The translations under genes and the position numbers were made by a program. Shown here in pieces: positions 1 through 20,391 of a DNA stretch of 39,981 nucleotides. The notes beneath the pieces are model-generated. The model was given only the letters and a program-made list of their open reading frames with translations. It was not told where the DNA came from and did not search any database. The stretch is taken from contig JAYGCN010000121.1 in the NCBI GenBank assembly GCA_046583315.1, positions 1-39,981 on the forward strand, read 5' to 3'. Within the stretch, counting starts at the first letter, position 1. Each line of letters begins with the position of its first letter. The DNA comes from Candidatus Hydrogenedentota bacterium. GTDB taxonomy: Bacteria; Hydrogenedentota; Hydrogenedentia; Hydrogenedentales; GCA-2746185.

Positions 1-670
1 TTTGGGTAAAATTTGGGTAATATTGATGTGAGTGCGAATTCGAGCCGCAGTGCTGGTACAAGTCGGTAATGAGCGCGGCAAATCCTATAAGGTCGTCATT
101 TATGCACAGGGAACACAGTTCGTGGTGCTGGAGGGTCTCCAAGGCGTTCAGATAGTTGGTCGATTCAGAGGACACACTCGCTTCGTCCACAACCGTCTTC
201 GCTGCAATCGTGTCACTCTCATTTTTAGGGCTCAGGGGACGGGCTACCTCCCCACGTGCGCCAAAAAGCATCACTCCGACCAGCTCTTCCTCCCCCACGT
301 CGCCCAGAATGGATCCGGCTGCACGCTGCGCACGCTCGAAGGTGTCGCCGACCGCCATTGAGTAGGAATTGTCCAGCAAGATCATATGGCGTACGGCATC
401 ACCCGAAAATTCCGATGCGACGGGTGCCGCCCAATAGGGGCGCGCAAAGGCCAGAGCCAGCAGTGCCAGCACCATCATGCGCATCAGCATTAACAAAATA
501 TGTTCGATTTTCTTACGTTCGATGACTTCTTTTTTTATGTCGGGGATAAACAGGAGGCTACTGAACTTCATCGGCTCGCGTTCGGGACGCCGTATCTGAT
601 GAATCAAATACGGAGCGACCAGCAGTCCCATGCCGACCATAAAGAGAGGTGCCAGTAGAGAAAGGCCCAT
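1..670 (-). CDS. BatA N-terminal double-TM domain + vWA domain protein (partial, runs off left edge)
   Basis: Not in the ORF track because it has no stop in the window. ATG at 670-668 overlaps the DUF58 stop (TAATG). Manual translation MGLSLLAPLFMVGMGLLVAPYLIHQIRRPEREPMKFSSLLFI...LLMLMRMMVLALLALAFARPY...ILLDNSYSM matches the BatA motif (P.LIH, F.SL.F, LAFARP) followed by a vWA MIDAS DxSxS. Confidence 0.88.
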   Translation of the reverse strand, partial: MGLSLLAPLFMVGMGLLVAPYLIHQIRRPEREPMKFSSLLFIPDIKKEVIERKKIEHILLMLMRMMVLALLALAFARPYWAAPVASEFSGDAVRHMILLDNSYSMAVGDTFERAQRAAGSILGDVGEEELVGVMLFGARGEVARPLSPKNESDTIAAKTVVDEASVSSESTNYLNALETLQHHELCSLCINDDLIGFAALITDLYQHCGSNSHSHQYYPNFTQ

Positions 671-1608
671 TATGCGACACCTCCCGCCGAATTACGTCGC
701 GTCGTGGCGGCCTGCGTCGCGGAGTGATTCCGATAGTTCAGATAAAACCGAAGCGCGCGGTCCAATGGTTCATCCGTCGTAAACTCGGTCAACTCGATCT
801 CCGCCTCGAGACATGCCCGGCGTAGGGCTTCAAAATGTTTCTCCCGATTCTCCAGGTATTGTTGGCGCACGGCATCTGGCACGGTGTACTGCTCATGACC
901 CGATTCCGCGTCGACGAAGGTCACTGTTTCATCAAAGGGAAAGGTCTGTTCTGCGGGGTCACTGATTTGCATCACGATCACGTCCTGCTGACGTGCGCGC
1001 AAGGACTTCAGGTGCAGAATCATTTCCTCTATCGGATGCAATAGATCGGAAATCAGAATCACAACACCGCGCGGCTTTAAGACATCGCCTAGATAATGAA
1101 GTGCCTTGGGCGTGTCGGTGTGTCCTTCCGCGCGAACGTTGTCGAGCTCCACCAGAATACGGCGCACGTGCGCATCGCTGGACATCGGCGGGATATATTG
1201 GAGCAAATCATGGTGATATGCGATCAATCCTGCCGCATCACGCTGCCGTCGCAACAGTACCGCCAACGATGCCGCCAACATCCGTGCATAGTCGAACTTT
1301 ACGAGTGCATGGCTCCCGTAGTCCATTGAACCACTACAGTCCAGCAAGATCGTCGCACGCAACGTGGTCTCTTCTTCGTATTGCTTCACATGCAAGCGAT
1401 CCGTGCGACCAAAAAGACGCCAATCCACCTTGCGCAGGTCGTCGCCTTGTGCGTATGCACGATATTGGGCAAATTCGATCGACGAACCCGAATGCGGACT
1501 ACGATGCAGTCCCGCCATCAGCCCGTCCACCACGGTACGCGCCAAGAGCTGCAGATCGGTGATCGCCGCGAGCTGCTCGGGTCTAATAAATTTTAATTCT
1601 TGTTCCAT
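670..1608 (-). CDS. DUF58 family protein (MoxR partner, vWA-like)
   Basis: Motifs GLHRSPHSGSSIEFAQYRAYAQGDDLRKVDW, VKQYEEET, LDCSGSM and VILISDL; lies directly downstream of moxR. Confidence 0.93.
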   Translation of the reverse strand: MEQELKFIRPEQLAAITDLQLLARTVVDGLMAGLHRSPHSGSSIEFAQYRAYAQGDDLRKVDWRLFGRTDRLHVKQYEEETTLRATILLDCSGSMDYGSHALVKFDYARMLAASLAVLLRRQRDAAGLIAYHHDLLQYIPPMSSDAHVRRILVELDNVRAEGHTDTPKALHYLGDVLKPRGVVILISDLLHPIEEMILHLKSLRARQQDVIVMQISDPAEQTFPFDETVTFVDAESGHEQYTVPDAVRQQYLENREKHFEALRRACLEAEIELTEFTTDEPLDRALRFYLNYRNHSATQAATTRRNSAGGVA

Positions 1609-1626
1609 TTAGTCGTAATCCAATCG

Positions 1627-2688
1627 TTATAAACCGGACTCTTCGGGTCTTACCGATTCCAGTAAACGGCCAATTACGTCTTCGACCGTCACGTGATCCG
1701 CTTCGGCGCGGAAATTGGTCAGGATACGGTGACGCAATACGGGACGCGCAATGGCCTGAATATCGCCTACGGACACATGGAAACGACCCTGTAGAATGGC
1801 GCGGGCTTTGGCACCCAGTACCAGATTTTGCGTCGCACGTGTACCGGCACCCCAGCTCACCCATTGCTTGATGTAGTCGGGCGCACCGGCGAAATCGGGG
1901 CGACTCGCCTGGCTCAATCGAACAGCATAACGCGCAACCGAATCGGAGATCGGCACCATGCGAACCAGTCGCGTAAAGTCGACCATGTCCTCGGCGGAAA
2001 ACGCGCTCTCGGGCTCGGCGTGCGCGTTTGATGTGGTACGAGTAGCCACTTCGAGTTCATCGTCTTCACTGAGATAATCGATCATGATATTAAACATGAA
2101 ACGATCCAACTGCGCCTCTGGAAGCGGGTAGGTGCCTTCCAATTCGATCGGGTTCTGGGTGGCCAACACGTAAAATGGTTTATCGAGCGCGCGCATTTCT
2201 CCGGCAACAGTCACCTGGCGTTCTTCCATCGCTTCCAACAGCGCGGCCTGCGTTTTCGGTGGGGTACGATTGATTTCGTCGGCAAGCAGAATATTCGTGA
2301 ACACGGGGCCTTCGATAAAACGAAGTTCCCTGTGGCCCGTCTGCGATTCATCGATAATTTCCGTTCCGGTAATATCCGACGGCATGAGATCCGGCGTGAA
2401 CTGAACGCGTTTGAATTTCAGATCGAGAATCTGGGCCAATGTGCGAATGAGCAAGGTCTTGGCGAGACCCGGCGCACCGGTGATCAGGCAGTGGTTCCCC
2501 GAAAATAGCACGATCAAAAGCTCTTCGACGACTTGCTGCTGGCCGACAATGACACGCCCGATCTCGTGCTGTAATTTTTCCCTACCGATCTTGAGGCGTT
2601 CCAGGGCTTCTTCTTCGAAAGCCTTGGATGGTTCTGAGGTCGTCTCATTTTCGACTACTGCGTCCGTTGAATCCGTATTTGATTCCAA
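1627..2688 (-). CDS. moxR: MoxR family AAA+ ATPase
   Basis: Walker A GAPGLAKT, RVQFTPDLMPSDITG, Walker B LLADEINRTPPKTQAALLEAM, ATQNPIELEGTYPLPEAQLDRF. TTG start preceded by AAGGA. Confidence 0.95.
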   Translation of the reverse strand: MESNTDSTDAVVENETTSEPSKAFEEEALERLKIGREKLQHEIGRVIVGQQQVVEELLIVLFSGNHCLITGAPGLAKTLLIRTLAQILDLKFKRVQFTPDLMPSDITGTEIIDESQTGHRELRFIEGPVFTNILLADEINRTPPKTQAALLEAMEERQVTVAGEMRALDKPFYVLATQNPIELEGTYPLPEAQLDRFMFNIMIDYLSEDDELEVATRTTSNAHAEPESAFSAEDMVDFTRLVRMVPISDSVARYAVRLSQASRPDFAGAPDYIKQWVSWGAGTRATQNLVLGAKARAILQGRFHVSVGDIQAIARPVLRHRILTNFRAEADHVTVEDVIGRLLESVRPEESGL

Positions 2689-2744
2689 GAGTCTATAAAT
2701 CCTTGTTGGTTAATCGCGCACCGATGCGCGTTACGTTCCAATCA

Positions 2745-3596
2745 TTAATGGGTCATGGCGTACACAACGATATTGATACCCATTGGGTACGCCTTTTTTG
2801 CTGATATCTCCTCAAAATAGCCGCGATGTTCGCCTTCACGTTCCCACCCGTCTCCGAGATCTGTGTTGTGGCAGATCACCATCATCAACCGACCGGTCGG
2901 GTCCTTTATGCCGCGATAATGCACCTCCTGCGAATCGTAGCGCTCACTCGTGTCGCCGCCGGTATTAACCCAATGCCACGGCGTTGGCACCTGAGGTTTT
3001 TCGTCCAGATCAAATACCATGTGGAAAATCGGGTGATCCAACTCAAGGTCGATGATGGGGAAAATTTCGGGATCAAAGACACGACTGATCTGTATCTCCC
3101 AGTTGGTCCACTCATCTTCTCCCCAAAAATCGTCGACCATCATGAAACCGCCACGCAACAGATAGTCCTGTAGACGGGTCACTTCTTCTTCGGTAAAGAT
3201 CAATTCCCCGGGCTCAATTAAATAGACAAAGGGGTAATCGAAAAGCGCATCGTCTGTGATTCGCACGACGACATGTTTGTAGACCCCGTTTCGGTCTTTC
3301 GCAACGTCCAACGTGGTCAGTTCAGACAATCGCCATGAGAAGTGACGATCCGACTCAGGATAATCAATTCCCCAGCGCCCTCCGGCATTGGTCTGGGGAT
3401 GTTCCCACTCAGAGGTATATCGAATGCGGCAGAAGGTGAACTCGTTGCCCGGAAAAATCGTGCGTTCGGAGATCTCCAATGCTTCCCAGGCACTGCGATC
3501 CCAATGCCGTTGCGCGAATACTTTCGATAACCCGGACACAGCCGTAGCGCCGACCGCGAAAACAAGCACCGCTATAATCCATTGTCTCTTAATCAA
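2745..3596 (-). CDS. DUF4159 domain protein with signal peptide
   Basis: Motifs FTFCRIRY, W..DYP.SD, YPFVY..EPG, YLLRGGF..VDDFWG, HNTDLGDGWE, MGINIVVYAMTH; hydrophobic N-terminus; typical neighbour of MoxR. Confidence 0.9.
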   Translation of the reverse strand: MIKRQWIIAVLVFAVGATAVSGLSKVFAQRHWDRSAWEALEISERTIFPGNEFTFCRIRYTSEWEHPQTNAGGRWGIDYPESDRHFSWRLSELTTLDVAKDRNGVYKHVVVRITDDALFDYPFVYLIEPGELIFTEEEVTRLQDYLLRGGFMMVDDFWGEDEWTNWEIQISRVFDPEIFPIIDLELDHPIFHMVFDLDEKPQVPTPWHWVNTGGDTSERYDSQEVHYRGIKDPTGRLMMVICHNTDLGDGWEREGEHRGYFEEISAKKAYPMGINIVVYAMTH

Positions 3597-3605
3597 GATA
3601 CACCA

Positions 3606-6266
3606 CTAATCCGTAGAATTGCTCGCAAGCGGTTCTACCTCCACATCGGAGGTCTCATCGTTTAGTTTCAACAAGAATTCTTGTGCCTTCCAATAATTCG
3701 GCACCGTTTCGAGCAACTCAAGCACTTCGCGTTTTGCGGCATCCAACTCATCCAGTTTCGCCAGCAGCACGGCTTTCTGATAGCGATAAATCACCCAGTT
3801 CGACGCGTCTACCGACAACAGCACATCCAGGCGTTTCAACGCACCTGCATAATCTTCTTTTGCAAGCAGACCGTCCATGTATGCGGACTGAAGACCCGGA
3901 CTATAGGGATCGATCCCGATACCCCAGTCGCCCAATTCTCCCAGACGCTCATCGTCACCGGTCTCCCGGTATAGTTGAACCAGCTCCAGCGTGGCCCCCA
4001 ATTCGCTCGGCGTCCAGGCGACGATACGTTCCAAGACATCGATGAAGCCTTCTTTGTCCTGCTGCTCTTTGTAGATTTCGGCCATCTGCCGAAGCGGCGC
4101 ATGCTCTCCATCATAATCGGGGTACAAGTCGTAGGCCTCCTCCAACGCTTCGAGTGCCCGATCGTAATCCTTTTCTTCGCGGGCCACGCCAGCCTTTTTC
4201 ATGGCGACGGCATGGCGAGAGTTTTCCGATTTCAATGTGGGCGATGAGGGGCCGATCGCATCCACATGCGGGTCGACAATCTCGAACTGTTTTTGCAAGA
4301 AGCCTTTCACGGTACCCGAATCCTCGTCTGGTTCCAGTAAGGTGTACAACGGCTCAAGTCGATCATCAAGATAGAGATGAAACGCTTCGTTCAACTCCTC
4401 CATCGATACGGAGGCTGCCACTATCAGCGCGTCATTCGTGGAAACTTTGTTACCAATGGCATCCAACGAATCAACCAGTGCATCGAAACCGTATTGCTCG
4501 ACATAGAAATTAACGAACTCGCCGGCCATGAAATATCCGAACATGAGATGTCCCGGCGAGGGTGCCTTGGTAAACAGATATTCCAACTCATGGACATCCG
4601 GTTGGCCTTCTTGAGCCAATATCGTCAAGTAATCTTCGTCGAGTCGATTGTGGAAGGCGGTCGAATAGGTGTTTTCCTCGTAAACGGAAATTCCCTCGGA
4701 CAGCCAGCGCGGCATTCGGTTGTTCGTTTTTTGCAAGGTAATCACGTGCACGAATTCATGCCATAGAACCGACCGCCAGTTGGAGGAACCCTTGGGCCGT
4801 ACCGAGGGCGCGTCCATCGTGATCAGCTTGCCAAAACAGATACCCATGTGCCCAACGCTGCCCGGCAATCCTACGGAACGAACCATGAAATCGTCGTGAT
4901 CGTCGAACATCTCAATGAGAACCGGTTTTTCGAGCTCAACTTCATACTTCGCCTCGTACAGTTCAATGGCTTCATCGAGCAAATCCAGCGCGAGATCGCC
5001 CATCACGGGTTGTTCGCTGATTGGGAGCTTCAATGTGAAATCGCCGCGCTGCACCGTCGCGAATCCCTCAAGCGTATCCATCAGTTCCAGCATATTGAAG
5101 GTCGCGACACTGTAGGGATACACCTCGAAAATGCGCTCCAGTTCCCGACGACCCTCCGCTTCCCGACCCAATCGCAGAAGATCCAGACTGTACGCTTCAC
5201 GAGCCTCTACGTTTCCCTCGTCAAAGGTAAGCGCCATCTCTTGGAACGCAAGTCCATCCTTGAAGCGATAATGGCGTGACGCGATGTCGCCCAAGGTCTG
5301 GTAGAGCTCCGAGCATACCGGATTGAATGCCAAGGCACGTTCGACAGTCGATTGCATGGCCTCGTCATCGTATTGCAGATAATGCGCCGCAGCTTTATAT
5401 CCCAGGAAGCGCGTGTCCACCGGATTGATCGCCAGCATTTTGTCAATCAGCGCGAGGGCTTCGTCCGTTTCACCCATATCGAGATGTTTGCGCACCATCA
5501 CGCTGTGGACGCGCGGATTATTTGGATTGAGCGACAGAATATGCTCGATGACCTCTCCCAACCGCGCGTCGCGGGATTTCCAGTAACTATCCATCAACCC
5601 TTCGAGCGCAGGCTGATAGCTCTCGTCTTTCTCGAGTGCTTCGAGGTAATGCTTCTCGGCGACATCATACCCACTGGCGCGGTATGCCAAGTCTCCCGCT
5701 CCGACATGCGCCGCCGCAGACAACATGTGTCGCCGCGCCTCAATGTACGGTGTATAGAGCTGGCTCATGATTGATTTCGGATTTTCACCGGTCAGTTCGA
5801 GCAGGTACCCCGTAGCCGCCAAATTTTCGCTGGCATTCGAATAGAATCGCCGTTGCGATTGAAACAGAGAATTGGCACGCGCCAGCCACGAGGAGTATTC
5901 GTCCATGTTGCCTCGATAGCGATTCATCAGGGCGGCTTCCATCATGTACCAGACTTGCGGACTGGATACGGCTACCGACTGAACGTCGGTGATGGCCTCG
6001 TCGACCCGTCCTACGGCAAAGCGCAATTTCGCGCGACGAAAAATCCATTTGTCATAGCGGCGCGGCTGTTCGTCGACGATTCGCTCAAGAGCGCTCAGGG
6101 CACGCTGATATTCCCCCTGATCCCACAACTCCTCGTAATCTTCATAGAATTCGTCGGCATCGCGGTCATCTGAAACCTGCGAATATGCCGCAATGCAACC
6201 CAATAGAAGAATCGCACAGAGCCCCCAAACACGCATAATCATATTTCCCCACTGAAAAATACGCAA
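3606..6266 (-). CDS. TPR-repeat protein with central peptidase MA-like zinc metalloprotease domain, exported
   Basis: Signal peptide; TPR-like helical repeats on both sides; zinc motif VLWHEFVHV followed by MPRWLSEG; GGAGG SD before the TTG start. Confidence 0.85.
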   Translation of the reverse strand: MRIFQWGNMIMRVWGLCAILLLGCIAAYSQVSDDRDADEFYEDYEELWDQGEYQRALSALERIVDEQPRRYDKWIFRRAKLRFAVGRVDEAITDVQSVAVSSPQVWYMMEAALMNRYRGNMDEYSSWLARANSLFQSQRRFYSNASENLAATGYLLELTGENPKSIMSQLYTPYIEARRHMLSAAAHVGAGDLAYRASGYDVAEKHYLEALEKDESYQPALEGLMDSYWKSRDARLGEVIEHILSLNPNNPRVHSVMVRKHLDMGETDEALALIDKMLAINPVDTRFLGYKAAAHYLQYDDEAMQSTVERALAFNPVCSELYQTLGDIASRHYRFKDGLAFQEMALTFDEGNVEAREAYSLDLLRLGREAEGRRELERIFEVYPYSVATFNMLELMDTLEGFATVQRGDFTLKLPISEQPVMGDLALDLLDEAIELYEAKYEVELEKPVLIEMFDDHDDFMVRSVGLPGSVGHMGICFGKLITMDAPSVRPKGSSNWRSVLWHEFVHVITLQKTNNRMPRWLSEGISVYEENTYSTAFHNRLDEDYLTILAQEGQPDVHELEYLFTKAPSPGHLMFGYFMAGEFVNFYVEQYGFDALVDSLDAIGNKVSTNDALIVAASVSMEELNEAFHLYLDDRLEPLYTLLEPDEDSGTVKGFLQKQFEIVDPHVDAIGPSSPTLKSENSRHAVAMKKAGVAREEKDYDRALEALEEAYDLYPDYDGEHAPLRQMAEIYKEQQDKEGFIDVLERIVAWTPSELGATLELVQLYRETGDDERLGELGDWGIGIDPYSPGLQSAYMDGLLAKEDYAGALKRLDVLLSVDASNWVIYRYQKAVLLAKLDELDAAKREVLELLETVPNYWKAQEFLLKLNDETSDVEVEPLASNSTD

Positions 6267-15043: not shown

Positions 15044-15089
15044 AAACGCTTTGCATTTCCTGAGTGGGTGTGAATTTGGAAGGAGCGGT

Positions 15090-16633
15090 ATGCGAAGAGC
15101 ACGACTGGGTTTAGGCTTTTTCTTTACACTCTTCGTATGCTTCGCTCTCGGAGCATGTTCGCGTGGGTACGATCCGGGACCGACAACAAAAGTCAGTGTC
15201 GACATCACGTTGACGGGTTTTGACAACGACCTGCCTCTTACGGTGCATGTCTTTCCGGGCAAGGCGACTCAGGGCGCATATGGGCGACCACGGGAACCAA
15301 CAGTTACGGTCGACTGGAGGACTCTCAAACACTTGAGTCGAGCTCCGGACAGCTGACTTTCGAAGTCTTTGAAAGCGAATGGATGACCGTATTTATTAGC
15401 TCGCAGAAGCGGGGCATCTACGTCGCAGAATCACGGAAGTTCGAGTCTGCAAAAACGCCTGTTGAGATTTCGGTCGACAAAAACTCGTTAGTCACCCTGT
15501 CTGGCACGGTCGGCAATCGACGAGGAATGACCCGTGACAAGACGTGGCTCTACTTTGGAAATAGTTATGGGTCGTTTCTCGATGAAGAAGCTGTGGGAAT
15601 CACTGATTCAGATGGGAACTTTGCTCTTCATGTGAACTCGCTCACGGAAACCTTGCTGGTCACGACGGAGGACGGTCGTACGGGCTGGTTGGAAATCGAT
15701 GCCTCGAAGGATGCGGCTTCTATCGAATTCGATCTTCGCCCCAAAGTTGAGAAAGGGAAATTGCTGATTGCTTCTCCGGCGAAGGGGACCGCCTTCGTTC
15801 GAGCCAACTATGGCACCTACAGTCAGTTTGCCAGCCCGTTTGGCGAGACTGGGTTTGAATTGACCGGACTTCCTCAGGGCGAGCCCTATCTGCGTGTGAT
15901 TTGGTCTGATGAGGTTGGACCCTTTGATGACTTCGTCCGGTTCAAATTGGGTATCTTCCCTAAGAAGTATTTGAACCGAAGCGTAACGCGGAAAGTGAAA
16001 CTCGACAAGAGCGACATGGGAACGATAGAGATTCCAATGACTGAAGAGACGCGAAAGTATATTGTTCGACTAGAGGGGCAATTGGACGCTGGTGTATTAG
16101 ATATTGAAGGATACGCGGATACGGGAGAACATTTTAGTACGACTCACGCTTTCAAGCGTCTCAAGTTTAAGATTGAAATTCCTGATTTCGAGCGGTTTCG
16201 AATAGGTGGACGCGTGAGAACGGATTCCGGCGACCAGAGAATATATCGATTTATAGACCGCGCGGCGTTGAGTGAAGAGAAATTGGTACTGAATCTCGCT
16301 CCCAAGGACGACGTAGCCATTTCGACGACTCTTAGGGGATTCCTTGAAATGAATGGAGGTTACGTCAATCTCTATCGAGGTACAATTGAGTCCGACGATG
16401 TCTTCGAGCACCCAGACATTTATTCTATGAGTTTGATGGATACGAAGGCGATGGAGAATATTGTCTCGACTGTCCGTTTCGACCATCTTGAACAGGGAGA
16501 CTATACGCTCGTTGCGCATGCGTTTCTTTCCGAAGGCCCCGGTCCTGTCGCGGAGCATTACGTAGCGAGAAAACCAATCACTATATCCCATGATGTGGCA
16601 GACGTAAGTATGAATCTACACTCATCACGCTAA
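15090..16633 (+). pseudogene. Frameshifted lipoprotein gene (beta-sandwich rich, unknown function), split into 15090-15356 and 15383-16633
   Basis: AGGAG SD, ATG 15090 and lipobox LGAC. The frame of the downstream ORF is open back to 15224, and one extra base near GTCTTTCCGGG (about 15249-15259) joins the two pieces into one ORF of about 514 aa. Confidence 0.68.
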
Positions 16634-16639
16634 CCTTGA

Positions 16640-16708
16640 GGATACACAGTATCCGTCCATTTTTCTTTTGCTTCTTTTCTCTTTTTGGAAAGAGAAAAGA
16701 AGGGCGGT
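16640..16708 (-). repeat. Dispersed two-hairpin repeat, copy B
   Basis: On the minus strand, directly after the yidC stop: ACCGCC, CTTCTTTTCTCTTT-CCAA-AAAGAGAAAAGAAG, CAAAAGAAAAA, then GGATAC-TGT-GTATCC. Confidence 0.78.
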
Positions 16709-18319
16709 TCAGCTTTTCGCGTTTACTCTTCGGGTGACGATTTCTTGTTGGATGTATTGTCCGATGTTGGACATCATCCAGTAGAGGACGAGTCCGGCGG
16801 GGAAGGAGTAGAAGAGGGTGAAGAAGAGTGCGGCGAGCATAATCATGGAGCGCATGTGTGATTTCTTCTGGTCGCCTTCTGCGGAGGTACCGAGGTTGGT
16901 GGTGAGCACCATCGTTACAGCCATCAGCATGGGAAGTATGTTGAAGTATGCGCCGAAGTAGGGGATGGTAAAGCCGAAGGGGAATAGTTGATCGGGAATT
17001 GACAGGTCGTCTATCCAGAGGAATCGGGCGCCTTGCATATCGATTTCCTGCCCGAGGATATTGAAGATGGCGATCAGGATCGGGAGTTGGAGAAGTACGG
17101 GCAGGCATCCGAGCATGGGCGCGAGCGGATTGATGCCGTGTTCTTTGTAAAGTGCCATAGTTTTTTTGTATTGAACCTGCGCGTCCGAGTGTTTCGCTTT
17201 GATCTCGTCGATGAGTGGTTTCAATTTCGCTTGATCAGCCATCATTTGCGCGTTCATTTTGATGGCTTTCTGGGCCATGGGGAATAATAGAATACGCACG
17301 AGCACGGTCAGCACGAGCAGCGTCACCCACCAGGAACCGATGACTCCGTAGATGGCTTTGAGGACATCGCCCAGCACGAGGCACAGCCATCGCAGCCACC
17401 CGGGCAGATTCGAATAGAGAATTGCGTCGTAGCCAGCCACCTCAAGCGCTTCGACCTCTTTTGGTCCTGCGTAGAACTCGAAAGCGAAGGAAACGGATTC
17501 ACCTGGGCCGAGAGAGTCAGGAACTGTTGGCTGTATCAGGAAGGCTGGATAAAATTCATAATCCTCTTCGGCAACTTCCGCTTGTTCGAGCATTGCGACG
17601 GGTACGTAGGCGCGACCGGATAGTGTGCCGCCATTCACATCTCGCAAAAACATTCCGTAATAGCGATTGTGAATTCCGACCCAACGCACGTCCGAATCAT
17701 CGAGTGGAAAATCCGTTTCCCAGGATTCTTCGTTCAAATCGAAGGGTTTGACCCCGTCATCCCCGCCCGCAGCTGCTTCGACATAGGAGTACATGGCATC
17801 GCCGAGCCCGCCGATGGAGCCGGGGATGATGCCGAGTCCAGGGCCTATCGTGATTGCGACATCGGAGAGGCTGATCGCATTCGCATTCCCGCGATTTGAT
17901 AGGTGGACAGTTAGTACGCCGGTGTACCCCTCTGCAGTGGTGACCATTTTCGAAATTTGCAGTCCGGATACGTGCATGGGAGACACGAACCGGCGAGACA
18001 ATGGATCAGTGGTCGCCGCCTCCGATGAATACCGTGCGGAGTTTGCAAAATGAGTCAGATCTCCGTCGATTCCATCCAGTACTAGACGGAAATGGCCTCC
18101 GAGATCCTGATCAGCAAGTTCGTCGTGCATCATGTGCACGGTCTCGCCTCCGGTTCCTGTGCGCGACACATCCCATTGAATTGGAATCGCGCCGTTGGGC
18201 GATAATCGGATTCGCGTGTGGTCGTCGAGAATGGCGATGTCGCCGACCGATTCCTGGGCAACAGTGCATACGCTGATTAGTGTAATCAGAAGAAGGCTGA
18301 TTATGTTGCGACACTTCAT
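16709..18319 (-). CDS. yidC: YidC/Oxa1 family membrane insertase (probable paralogue outside the rnpA-yidD locus)
   Basis: Motifs WVGIHNRYY, FYAGPKE, LTVLVRILLFP (conserved Arg), LYKEHGINPL..GCLPVLLQLPI, FLWIDDLSIPD, NILPMLM, FPAGLVLYW..SN...QQ. ATG 18319 overlaps the upstream stop (TGATG). The N-terminus looks like a cleavable signal peptide. Confidence 0.93.
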   Translation of the reverse strand: MKCRNIISLLLITLISVCTVAQESVGDIAILDDHTRIRLSPNGAIPIQWDVSRTGTGGETVHMMHDELADQDLGGHFRLVLDGIDGDLTHFANSARYSSEAATTDPLSRRFVSPMHVSGLQISKMVTTAEGYTGVLTVHLSNRGNANAISLSDVAITIGPGLGIIPGSIGGLGDAMYSYVEAAAGGDDGVKPFDLNEESWETDFPLDDSDVRWVGIHNRYYGMFLRDVNGGTLSGRAYVPVAMLEQAEVAEEDYEFYPAFLIQPTVPDSLGPGESVSFAFEFYAGPKEVEALEVAGYDAILYSNLPGWLRWLCLVLGDVLKAIYGVIGSWWVTLLVLTVLVRILLFPMAQKAIKMNAQMMADQAKLKPLIDEIKAKHSDAQVQYKKTMALYKEHGINPLAPMLGCLPVLLQLPILIAIFNILGQEIDMQGARFLWIDDLSIPDQLFPFGFTIPYFGAYFNILPMLMAVTMVLTTNLGTSAEGDQKKSHMRSMIMLAALFFTLFYSFPAGLVLYWMMSNIGQYIQQEIVTRRVNAKS

Positions 18320-19338
18320 CAAGGCACTAATCCGCACGCGCGGGTCAGGATAGTTATTGGCAGGAGTCCGATTGGTGAGGTCGTAGCCACGAATACGGGA
18401 GTTGTTCTGGGTTGGTAGCGCGATTTATGAAAACAGAGACCGCGAACGTTCACGAAGGGTGACCAGCCGAGTTTTTCGAAAATGCGGCATAGGGCGTAGA
18501 GGGGTAGTGCTCCTTTTCCATGCTCTTGAGCGGTCTCCCGAAGTTTGTGCATGGGCATGACACCCAGACTCACGAATTCGATCCCTTCCTCGCGAAACTG
18601 GTCCATTGCCTGCAGGAGGACCGCATCGAGCGTGCCTTTCGAAGCATCGGGTACGGCACGCAAGATGGAGGCGGTGTAGCCCACGCATTTGTGATCGCGA
18701 TAAATCGGGTCGAATACAACGAATCCGATTAGTCGGGAGCCTGATGTCGCTGAAAACATTCGTGTGTCGGGTTCGGGAGTTTGATTGAACGGTCGAACCA
18801 GAAAGGAGAGTTCGCGACGAGAGACGTGTTTGGTTTTGATCCAGCGATTGGATACCTGGGCCAACTCGAATCGTTCGGCGGGTGTATCGCGAATTTCGGC
18901 TATCTCTACGCCTGCGGATCGTACGCGATTTCTATAGTGACGGAGATCGCGTTTGTTGCGACCGGAGAGATTGAAGTCCACGAGGTCTATCCAGGCATCG
19001 GTACCTACGGGTGTCATGTGTACACCGATGTTGCGCAACGCTTCTGACGCCGCACCGTCTACTTGGGCAAAAATAACTCCTTTTCGGTCTCGCAAAAAGG
19101 CCTGAATTACATCTTCGTAATCGTTTTCCGCGCAGAGGGGGTTGCCGAGCGCCAGGGTGTGCCCCATGAACTTTCTATACGCGATGCCCCCCACGCCCGC
19201 CACTTCAAAAAAAGACAGGTCGTGTTGCATGACCGAGTAGGCGAGTGAATGACTTCCGTAGGCGCGGAGATAGGCCCGAATTCCGGACTCCGTTGCGGGC
19301 TGAAGTTCGTTTCGCATCTGTAGGGAGTTTTGCGTCAT
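18319..19338 (-). CDS. Stand-alone DUF2156 / MprF C-terminal-type aminoacyl-tRNA-dependent transferase (no membrane domain)
   Basis: Motifs HSLAY, ALGNP (cf. ALGDP), FNLSGRNKRDLRHYRNR, IGFVVFDP, FVSLG..P, VRGLCFHKSRY.P; no long hydrophobic segments. Confidence 0.85.
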   Translation of the reverse strand: MTQNSLQMRNELQPATESGIRAYLRAYGSHSLAYSVMQHDLSFFEVAGVGGIAYRKFMGHTLALGNPLCAENDYEDVIQAFLRDRKGVIFAQVDGAASEALRNIGVHMTPVGTDAWIDLVDFNLSGRNKRDLRHYRNRVRSAGVEIAEIRDTPAERFELAQVSNRWIKTKHVSRRELSFLVRPFNQTPEPDTRMFSATSGSRLIGFVVFDPIYRDHKCVGYTASILRAVPDASKGTLDAVLLQAMDQFREEGIEFVSLGVMPMHKLRETAQEHGKGALPLYALCRIFEKLGWSPFVNVRGLCFHKSRYQPRTTPVFVATTSPIGLLPITILTRACGLVP

Positions 19339-19344
19339 TACTCG

Positions 19345-20391
19345 CTATACCTGATCGTTGCTCAACAGTTTTTCGTCGAAGGCGAAGTCACTGAGTGCCA
19401 AATCTTTCTCGAAATCCAACACTTTGTCGATCAAGCCGTCCACCCACGCTTGCTCCTCGGGTAGCATGTGCGCATTCGTGGCATTCATCCACTCAATCGT
19501 CTTCAAAATGCCGTCGTGCAGACTGGTCTTGGGAGTCCACGCGGGCACGTGCTTGCGAAACAATCCGCTGTCGAAGACCATGGAGTATTGATATATTTCT
19601 TCGAGTAGAATGGAGGTGTCCGGCGGTGAACCCGCGACAATCAGGTTGCTCGGCATCGGGACCAGATTCACTTCTTTGTTGACGCAGGCTCCGATGGTTT
19701 CCAGGTACACGCGCCAATCGATGTGGTCTTCTGGTCCAACGTTGTAGACCTGCCCGACACATTCTGTGATCCCGATGGCATCCGCGAAAGCCTGAGCGAT
19801 GTCGTCAGCATAGATCAGATCGAAGCCGCTGAATCCGTCGCCCGGCACGATGATTGGTTTATCCGTCCGAATGCGTGATACGAGACAGGCGTCGTAGCCC
19901 CAGACGCTCGGCAATGCCTGACCGGGACCGTAGACGTGCGCGGGCCTCAGAATAGTCACCGGGAATCCGTCTTTTTCGAGGGCGGCCATGAACACCCCTT
20001 CGGCTTCACTCTTGCCCTTCCCGTATTGTCCGGTCGCGGCGTGTGCGGTAGATTCATCGGCGGGTATCGAGAGCAGTCGACCGTAGAGGGCCGTGGCGCT
20101 ACAAAATAAGTACTGTTTCACGCCAATCTCGCTGAACACCTTGGCGGCGTTTTCGGCGGTATGGGAATCAAAGGTGAGAAAGTCGACGACAACTTCGGGT
20201 GCGATCTCTTTGGCGGCGATTTCGAAGTTTTCAAAGTCGTTGCGATCGCCGTGCACGACTTCGACTTCCTGTCCGTGGCGCACGGTGGTCTGCCCACGAT
20301 TGAACAGCACGACATCGTGGCCCGCGCGACACAACGCGTCCACCAGCGGTGTACCAATTAGACCCGTTCCCCCTAACACCAACACGCGCAT
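19345..20391 (-). CDS. NAD-dependent epimerase/dehydratase family protein (atypical/extended SDR)
   Basis: Rossmann motif MRVLVLGGTGLIG, FNRG, GDRND, YGKGK (YxxxK), TILRPAHVYGPG, PGDG. Start revised to ATG 20391. Confidence 0.9.
   Translation of the reverse strand: MRVLVLGGTGLIGTPLVDALCRAGHDVVLFNRGQTTVRHGQEVEVVHGDRNDFENFEIAAKEIAPEVVVDFLTFDSHTAENAAKVFSEIGVKQYLFCSATALYGRLLSIPADESTAHAATGQYGKGKSEAEGVFMAALEKDGFPVTILRPAHVYGPGQALPSVWGYDACLVSRIRTDKPIIVPGDGFSGFDLIYADDIAQAFADAIGITECVGQVYNVGPEDHIDWRVYLETIGACVNKEVNLVPMPSNLIVAGSPPDTSILLEEIYQYSMVFDSGLFRKHVPAWTPKTSLHDGILKTIEWMNATNAHMLPEEQAWVDGLIDKVLDFEKDLALSDFAFDEKLLSNDQV

Follow-up and report, generated by a model that had tools for sequence, protein, structure and literature searches.

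An accessory YidC gene overlaps the gene of a stand-alone DUF2156 protein, a predicted aminoacyl-tRNA-dependent transferase, in one lineage of Hydrogenedentota

Within a 39,981-nt stretch of DNA from a Candidatus Hydrogenedentota bacterium (assembly GCA_046583315.1, contig JAYGCN010000121.1, positions 1 to 39,981; the window hereafter), three genes follow one another on the minus strand, encoding a short-chain dehydrogenase/reductase (SDR), a stand-alone DUF2156 protein and a member of the YidC family (Table 1). Their domains (PF01370, PF09924 and PF02096, respectively) all score above cut-off, and the layout recorded by a first-pass annotation of the letters alone, three co-oriented genes with a 6-nt gap and a TGATG overlap, is borne out by the coordinates. 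The genome, called G000 here (other genomes likewise carry G numbers; C, L and P numbers denote contigs, loci that were read and database homologues), is 96.7% complete with 5.4% contamination, and the GC content of the three genes (0.53-0.56) matches its 0.53. The database record of the DUF2156 protein begins at Met8, a start that would widen the gap to 27 nt; the 6-nt gap is favoured, because an 82% identical homologue (P0164) shares the longer N-terminus and has no Met at that position. An assembly artefact at the junction can be ruled out, as a diverged contig obtained in a different study runs across it. Beyond yidC, the fold of 16640-16712 reaches -21.5 kcal/mol (z -4.54), equalled by 0 of 200 shuffles, and its hairpin likely marks the end of the transcript, judging from the sequence; it is absent from the terminator-scan list and is not followed by a U-tract. 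Minus-strand sequence upstream of the SDR gene yielded no sigma-70-like promoter in the scan. The sequencing runs in which the stretch occurs come from marine or vent metagenomes, with no RNA run listed among them, and a 53% identical homologue of the DUF2156 protein is labelled Candidatus Hydrogenedentes; the lineage is thus probably one of marine Hydrogenedentota.

Table 1. Features of the three-gene run, in positions of the window.
Feature	Position	Strand	Details
SDR	19345..20391	-	ATG at 20391, 348 aa; PF01370 E 4.3e-29
SDR/DUF2156 gap	19339-19344	-	6 nt, from sequence
Stand-alone DUF2156 / LPG_synthase_C protein	18319..19338	-	339 aa; PF09924 E 3.1e-49
TGATG stop/start overlap, DUF2156 to YidC	18317..18321	-	From sequence; predicted translational coupling
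Accessory YidC	16709..18319	-	536 aa; PF02096 E 1.3e-41, TIGR03592
Perfect 14-bp hairpin, 6 nt past yidC stop	16671..16702	-	RNA fold

The YidC of the window is complete in its parts: a signal-peptide-like N-terminus, the P1 beta-sandwich, a core of five transmembrane (TM) segments, a cytoplasmic helical hairpin and a short C-terminal tail. It scores 162.8 bits against TIGR03592 (cut-off 84.3) and matches PF14849 weakly (17.3 bits, cut-off 24). Its AlphaFold2 model (pLDDT 92.7) finds E. coli YidC 6AL2 as the best Foldseek match (E 9.5e-25, TM-score 0.65), P1 domain included. For the YidC/Oxa1/Alb3 family, the accessible part of PMC8920935 describes a positively charged residue in a hydrophilic groove, and the groove Arg342 of the window protein is invariant in 22 out of 22 aligned rows. 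In housekeeping diderm YidCs an uncleaved TM anchor precedes P1; here the N-terminus has one hydrophobic stretch (residues 3-21), which AQ[E/D] follows in seven of the eight members of the clade to which this YidC belongs, and which may be a cleavable signal. Within that clade the TM core is 69-96% identical, dropping to 34-79% in the periplasmic domain. Compared with the canonical YidC of the same genome, to which it is about 32% identical over the matched part, the protein lacks the long basic tail, whose final 45 residues carry a net charge of +19 in the canonical copy. Sequence and model indicate an intact insertase core under strong conservation, and a retained insertase role is likely; no sequence feature points to an adaptation of this YidC to lipid transport.

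Is this then simply the YidC of its host? A single YidC is usually assumed for diderm bacteria. G000 has two PF02096 genes, the second being a canonical yidC on contig C291 in the order rpmH-rnpA-yidD-yidC-jag-mnmE (read from translations of the open reading frames, ORFs), so that the window gene is not the only yidC of this genome; near it lies none of rpmH, rnpA, yidD or jag, as had been noticed at first. Phylogeny was examined with a quick tree of 155 YidC TM cores and a careful one of a hand-picked 58 of those together with loci from the genomes. Canonical YidCs split from an accessory set with support 100/99, and the window YidC falls on the accessory side, in a tight clade of eight (100/100), which groups with YidCs of gene cassettes in Pseudomonadales in a 30-row clade (97/94). 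A recent duplication of the native canonical yidC is rejected (approximately unbiased test, p 3e-130).

No YidC of the eight-member clade was found at E<=1e-60 in the 134 other genomes of the phylum, which is why its relatives discussed below are visible only indirectly. Two PF02096 matches occur in 10/135 genomes, five of which have an accessory YidC (G000, G013, G043, G073 and G076). The second matches of the other five were discarded as a canonical gene split over two contigs (G007), a foreign-looking canonical block (G012), a canonical-like copy (G119), a fragment (G107) and a match below cut-off (G050). The block in G012 (C82, L033), a second canonical yidC-mnmE-dnaA set whose YidC lies far from the phylum's own in the tree, is probably a contaminant contig. 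In a sample of 401 genomes from another phylum there were four YidC matches, all scoring in the canonical range, three of them clearly canonical and one not placed by its ORF listing. A plasmid search returned low-identity YidCs only, and two follow-up searches yielded no further accessory loci.

The DUF2156 protein is encoded by the single PF09924 gene of the genome; a genome-contig scan with it gave one weak match of 44 residues. The first-pass annotation had described it as free of membrane domains, in agreement with a maximum hydropathy of 1.53 over 19-residue windows, none of which reaches a mean of 1.6; the protein is soluble. Its Atlas model has a TM-score of 0.86-0.91 to PF09924 clusters, and a basic helix carries seven K/R in residues 125-141. 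In the alignment to the lysyl-phosphatidylglycerol synthase (L-PGS) 4V36 (E 3.3e-17), the invariant Arg227 coincides with the Arg of IDLMR, and from this alignment and the known motif we take Arg227 to be the catalytic arginine. The Asp of IDLMR binds the amino group; here it is replaced by Ser224, with S, T, N or V at that position in 33/33 homologues. The C-terminal motif reads FHKSRY, its conservation having been checked in the same 33. Together, FHKSRY and the missing Asp define a soluble DUF2156 subfamily. A PF09924 synthase domain, a basic tRNA-binding helix and a catalytic Arg are what the accessible text of PMC6103681 gives for MprF-type enzymes, and the sequence suggests that the window protein is likely to transfer an amino acid from aminoacyl-tRNA to an acceptor. 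Which amino acid and which acceptor is not predictable, because specificity in this family cannot be read from sequence, as stated in the accessible part of PMC8913301. None of PMC13534887, PMC8974105, PMC7334510 and PMC11980842 yielded a numbering of the catalytic residues of MprF. In loci of family f5, a calcineurin-like metallophosphoesterase gene lies directly upstream of a stand-alone DUF2156 gene (L027:538-1530, L025:7338-8552, L077:7408-8622) with a GT9 heptosyltransferase-like gene nearby, making the metallophosphoesterase a second conserved partner of the subfamily.

The link between DUF2156 and YidC appears to extend beyond this genome. For three pairs of database homologues the same longest contig size is reported for YidC and DUF2156, being 7,936 bp (87/82% identity), 261,944 bp (68/60%) and 17,627 bp (56/51%), where chance alone would give roughly 0.035 such coincidences in a comparison of 15 x 33 rows. 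From this we infer that the link has been kept in three metagenomic relatives, down to 51/56% identity; for the 262-kb pair the inference concerns co-occurrence on one contig and not the distance between the genes. Direct adjacency is seen on a contig of 2,385 bp that comes from a different study and is about 85% identical; it covers the TM part of YidC and DUF2156 with 971 letters between the covered parts versus 989 here, and may stem from the organism behind the 87/82% pair. The four linked DUF2156 proteins all belong to a single six-row clade (SH-like approximate likelihood-ratio test, SH-aLRT, 98), and the YidCs linked to them reach across the root of the eight-member clade (P0004 versus P0001-3). 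As such, the DUF2156-linked copies do share one YidC clade, a point that the first-pass annotation had raised, and one DUF2156 clade. The linked cases appear to be kin rather than independent events, and the link is restricted to a lineage.

Moreover, the pairing is not obligatory. DUF2156 matches at E<=1e-30 occur in 16 of the 134 other genomes of the phylum, fifteen of the stand-alone type and one a fusion. The neighbourhoods of all fifteen were read, four of them on contigs under 10 kb, and yidC lies beside DUF2156 in none (0/15), each genome having one PF02096 match. The only clade member with readable context, a 52% identical YidC orthologue at L039 that is essentially P0007, follows a gene for an iron-containing alcohol dehydrogenase and has no DUF2156 within 8 kb upstream or 1.1 kb downstream. 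P0005, P0006 and P0008, on contigs of 2-6 kb, gave no DUF2156 co-occurrence match, and the genes flanking the three-gene run are not conserved in G001 of the same genus or G006 of the same family. The adjacency noted at first thus appears to hold for the relatives above and fails for the L039 orthologue, and the proposal that this YidC is dedicated to the transferase finds no support, given that orthologue and the fifteen genomes with a single YidC. The other genes of the L039 block occur on contig C88 of G000, without yidC. At the end of that contig (G000:C88:5382-6082), where L039 has yidC behind the dehydrogenase gene, lies a transposase-like fragment (from its translation), hinting at a rearrangement at this site.

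The SDR, putatively of the extended/atypical type, belongs to the NAD-dependent epimerase/dehydratase family, with GGTGLIG and YGKGK (YxxxK) motifs. No NCBIfam equivalog reaches its cut-off, and the best PDB matches are sugar-nucleotide epimerases (E about 5e-13). Orthologues are present in 29/134 other genomes of the phylum and have no conserved neighbour beyond close kin. The SDR as an obligatory partner is ruled out, since it adjoins DUF2156 at only one of these 29 loci, in G006; in G001 the sequence breaks inside the SDR, and in nine genomes both genes are present yet far apart or on separate contigs. The SDR-DUF2156 pairing put forward at first therefore recurs in one relative but not as a rule. 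A different combination exists in G101 (C72, L082:3914-6229), where a thioester-reductase-like SDR of the NAD_binding_4 type, without significant similarity to the window SDR, is fused to DUF2156 beside a P450-like ORF (labelled from its translation) and ABC-type export genes, possibly a small-molecule or lipid pathway. This fusion gives weak backing to a reductase-transferase theme, and the window SDR may, as a tentative suggestion, supply or modify a hydroxyl-bearing acceptor.

What, then, accompanies accessory YidCs elsewhere? In Pseudomonadales, a gammaproteobacterial-type order, 4/401 genomes gave accessory matches, two of them from one family. Their loci carry a TagF-like gene in all four cases (three scanned, PF04464), a sulfatase-fold membrane protein and a microprotein with a YIDPGSGS motif in three each, and DUF2156 in none. 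At L094 (G568:C2:339000-347000) an accessory yidC stands with genes for two sulfatase-fold proteins, a TagF-like protein, a nucleotidyltransferase and a glutamine-amidotransferase-like ORF, a cassette that we presume to resemble phosphoramidate pathways. Within Hydrogenedentota, a methyltransferase-like gene occurs in all five accessory-YidC genomes and in 26/135 overall, and it adjoins yidC in G013 and G076; in G043 and G073, yidC lies beside GT2, methyltransferase and YfhO-like genes. At 18 of the 26 methyltransferase loci a microprotein gene is found next to it at E<1e-3 (the training set included the G013 copy). This microprotein (the pair lies at G000:C220:51464-53154, L096, and at L101-L125) has a signal peptide, a single TM segment and a YLD-x-x-[TS]-GS motif, its methyltransferase-like partner measures roughly 470 aa, and it mostly occurs without an accessory YidC. 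Stand-alone DUF2156 is absent from all eight other accessory-YidC genomes; seven have no PF09924 at all, and in the eighth the domain occurs once, within a frame of 863 aa on a contig other than that of its yidC. G000 carries several of these genes in trans: C220 has the microprotein gene beside the methyltransferase-like one, and sulfatase-fold matches number at least four (three Pfam-confirmed), with polytopic enzymes on C160, C161, C200 and C275.

Gene order, folds, the retained groove arginine, phylogeny and distribution are established directly, and the reading that follows goes beyond them. Our preferred reading, held tentatively and as somewhat short of an even chance, is that of a client-type insertase co-expressed with a probable aminoacyl-tRNA transferase in a lineage-restricted envelope operon. 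The accessory YidC would be a protein insertase for envelope-modification clients encoded in trans. In a single lineage of marine Hydrogenedentota, the accessory yidC would have been added to an older SDR-DUF2156 pair, followed by joint inheritance, and the three genes would be co-expressed as envelope functions without needing each other. The likeliest clients would be the signal-peptide and single-TM microprotein (C220:51464-51703), with a topology like that of M13 procoat, and the sulfatase-fold polytopic enzymes mentioned above. M13 procoat itself has a signal and one TM segment. Both it and Pf3 coat are inserted by YidC without Sec, according to the accessible text of PMC7618853. The first-pass annotation had suggested that YidC inserts a specific client or replaces a flippase, and the client half fits better; the wider accessory group goes with other envelope genes. 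Several observations nevertheless weigh against our reading. No TagF-like (PF04464) gene was found in G000 (96.7% complete), and its microprotein is the most divergent match (E 7e-4). Since 21 of the 26 genomes with the methyltransferase gene show no accessory YidC, the methyltransferase-microprotein module can operate in its absence too. The remaining four accessory YidCs of the phylum belong to a different subclade, leaving few independent lineages, and a TGATG overlap with a link kept to about 51% identity is tighter than co-regulation needs.

Less probable, though to be taken seriously, is that a rearrangement brought the accessory yidC to a position behind SDR-DUF2156, where it uses the promoter of that pair and has simply been passed on, without any shared process. 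The L039 orthologue behind the dehydrogenase gene, with the rest of its block on C88 lacking yidC, would suit such an event, as would the single YidC in 15/15 other stand-alone DUF2156 genomes, the separation of SDR and DUF2156 in nine genomes and the apparent kinship of every linked case. However, a chance landing fits poorly with the stop/start overlap, with a link inferred at 51/56% identity across the root of the YidC clade, and with flanks that are not conserved in G001 or G006. That same overlap, the congruent YidC/DUF2156 identities and the very highly conserved cytoplasmic hairpin and TM core within the clade are also consistent with a membrane scaffold, in which YidC docks the soluble DUF2156 protein to aminoacylate a lipid, a lipid-linked glycan or a YidC client protein. 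We consider this unlikely, as the L039 orthologue has retained the same core (74%) with no DUF2156 gene next to it, and free-standing DUF2156 enzymes such as fungal ErgS reach lipids unaided (accessible part of PMC8913301).

Lowest in our estimate, and improbable, is a split MprF, with the DUF2156 enzyme aminoacylating a lipid and the YidC paralogue recruited to dock it and to move the amino-acid-tagged lipid or lipid-linked product as a dedicated flippase or scramblase. The idea is reasonable, drawing on the lipid scrambling by E. coli YidC in vitro reported in the accessible part of 10.1101/2023.09.01.555937, on the conservation of the link within one clade, and on DUF2156-DedA/VTT fusions (an Atlas cluster of 271 members, 87% VTT), because of which the transport partner of DUF2156 appears exchangeable; fusions of MprF synthase domains to DedA are also mentioned in the accessible text of PMC11980842. 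Yet no flippase is missing in G000, because three PF03706 (MprF flippase/PplT-type) and three PF09335 (DedA) genes are present besides the canonical YidC, which undercuts the earlier suggestion that the window YidC replaces one. PF03706 domains are widespread and stand-alone, in the accessible part of 10.1101/2022.03.11.483950. Furthermore, the fifteen other stand-alone DUF2156 genomes have no second YidC, the eight other accessory-YidC genomes have no stand-alone DUF2156, and the window YidC retains a full P1 domain and groove Arg, as in an insertase. If true, this would be the first YidC paralogue to have specialised in the transport of lipids instead of proteins.

Literature searches, with subscription papers mostly outside their reach and supplements not covered, gave no paper linking YidC to DUF2156/MprF and no description of the accessory YidC group; the accessible part of PMC5898192 mentions YidC and DUF2156/MprF separately. 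The locus adds an entry to an accessory YidC group that accompanies envelope-modification genes, and offers a compact three-gene test of spare insertase roles and of a dedicated use of YidC lipid scrambling, its reach being limited by the confinement of the DUF2156 link to one lineage. Elsewhere in the window, a 416-aa ORF (15383-16633, plus strand) of lower GC (0.49) and without Pfam or NCBIfam match is convergent on yidC and may begin further upstream, with 15051-15356. At 670-6266 on the minus strand lies an ordinary MoxR AAA ATPase, DUF58/VWA, DUF4159 and TPR-peptidase MA cluster.

Compared with known systems, the window YidC shares with housekeeping YidC (E. coli 6AL2/3WVF and the C291 copy) the P1 beta-sandwich, five-TM core, helical hairpin and groove Arg, and differs in standing away from rpmH-rnpA-yidD-jag, in its separate clade, its signal-peptide-like N-terminus and its short tail. 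The cassette accessory YidCs (L092-L095, L034, L126) lie on the same accessory side of the tree, and microprotein, methyltransferase-like and sulfatase-fold genes are likewise present in the genome; here, however, these partners are in trans, no TagF-like gene was found and the partner in cis is DUF2156, and the window YidC keeps a large P1 and an Arg where 6/8 cassette-type copies have Lys. With MprF and other aminoacyl-phosphatidylglycerol synthases (B. licheniformis 4V36, P. aeruginosa alanyl-phosphatidylglycerol synthase 4V34, R. tropici 7DUW), the DUF2156 protein has in common the PF09924 tandem-GNAT fold, the basic helix, an Arg aligned to IDLMR and a C-terminal aromatic-Lys motif. Unlike these, it is a soluble protein of 339 aa without fused flippase domain or IDLMR Asp, and has FHKSRY in place of FKEKY/FKSKF. 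VlmA-type transferases resemble it in the concept of a soluble GNAT-fold aminoacyl-tRNA transferase (accessible text of PMC6103681), although the neighbours here form no natural-product cluster. Fungal ErgS, likened by description and not by sequence to this bacterial enzyme, is a stand-alone DUF2156 protein that acts on a lipid without a membrane domain of its own (accessible part of PMC8913301).

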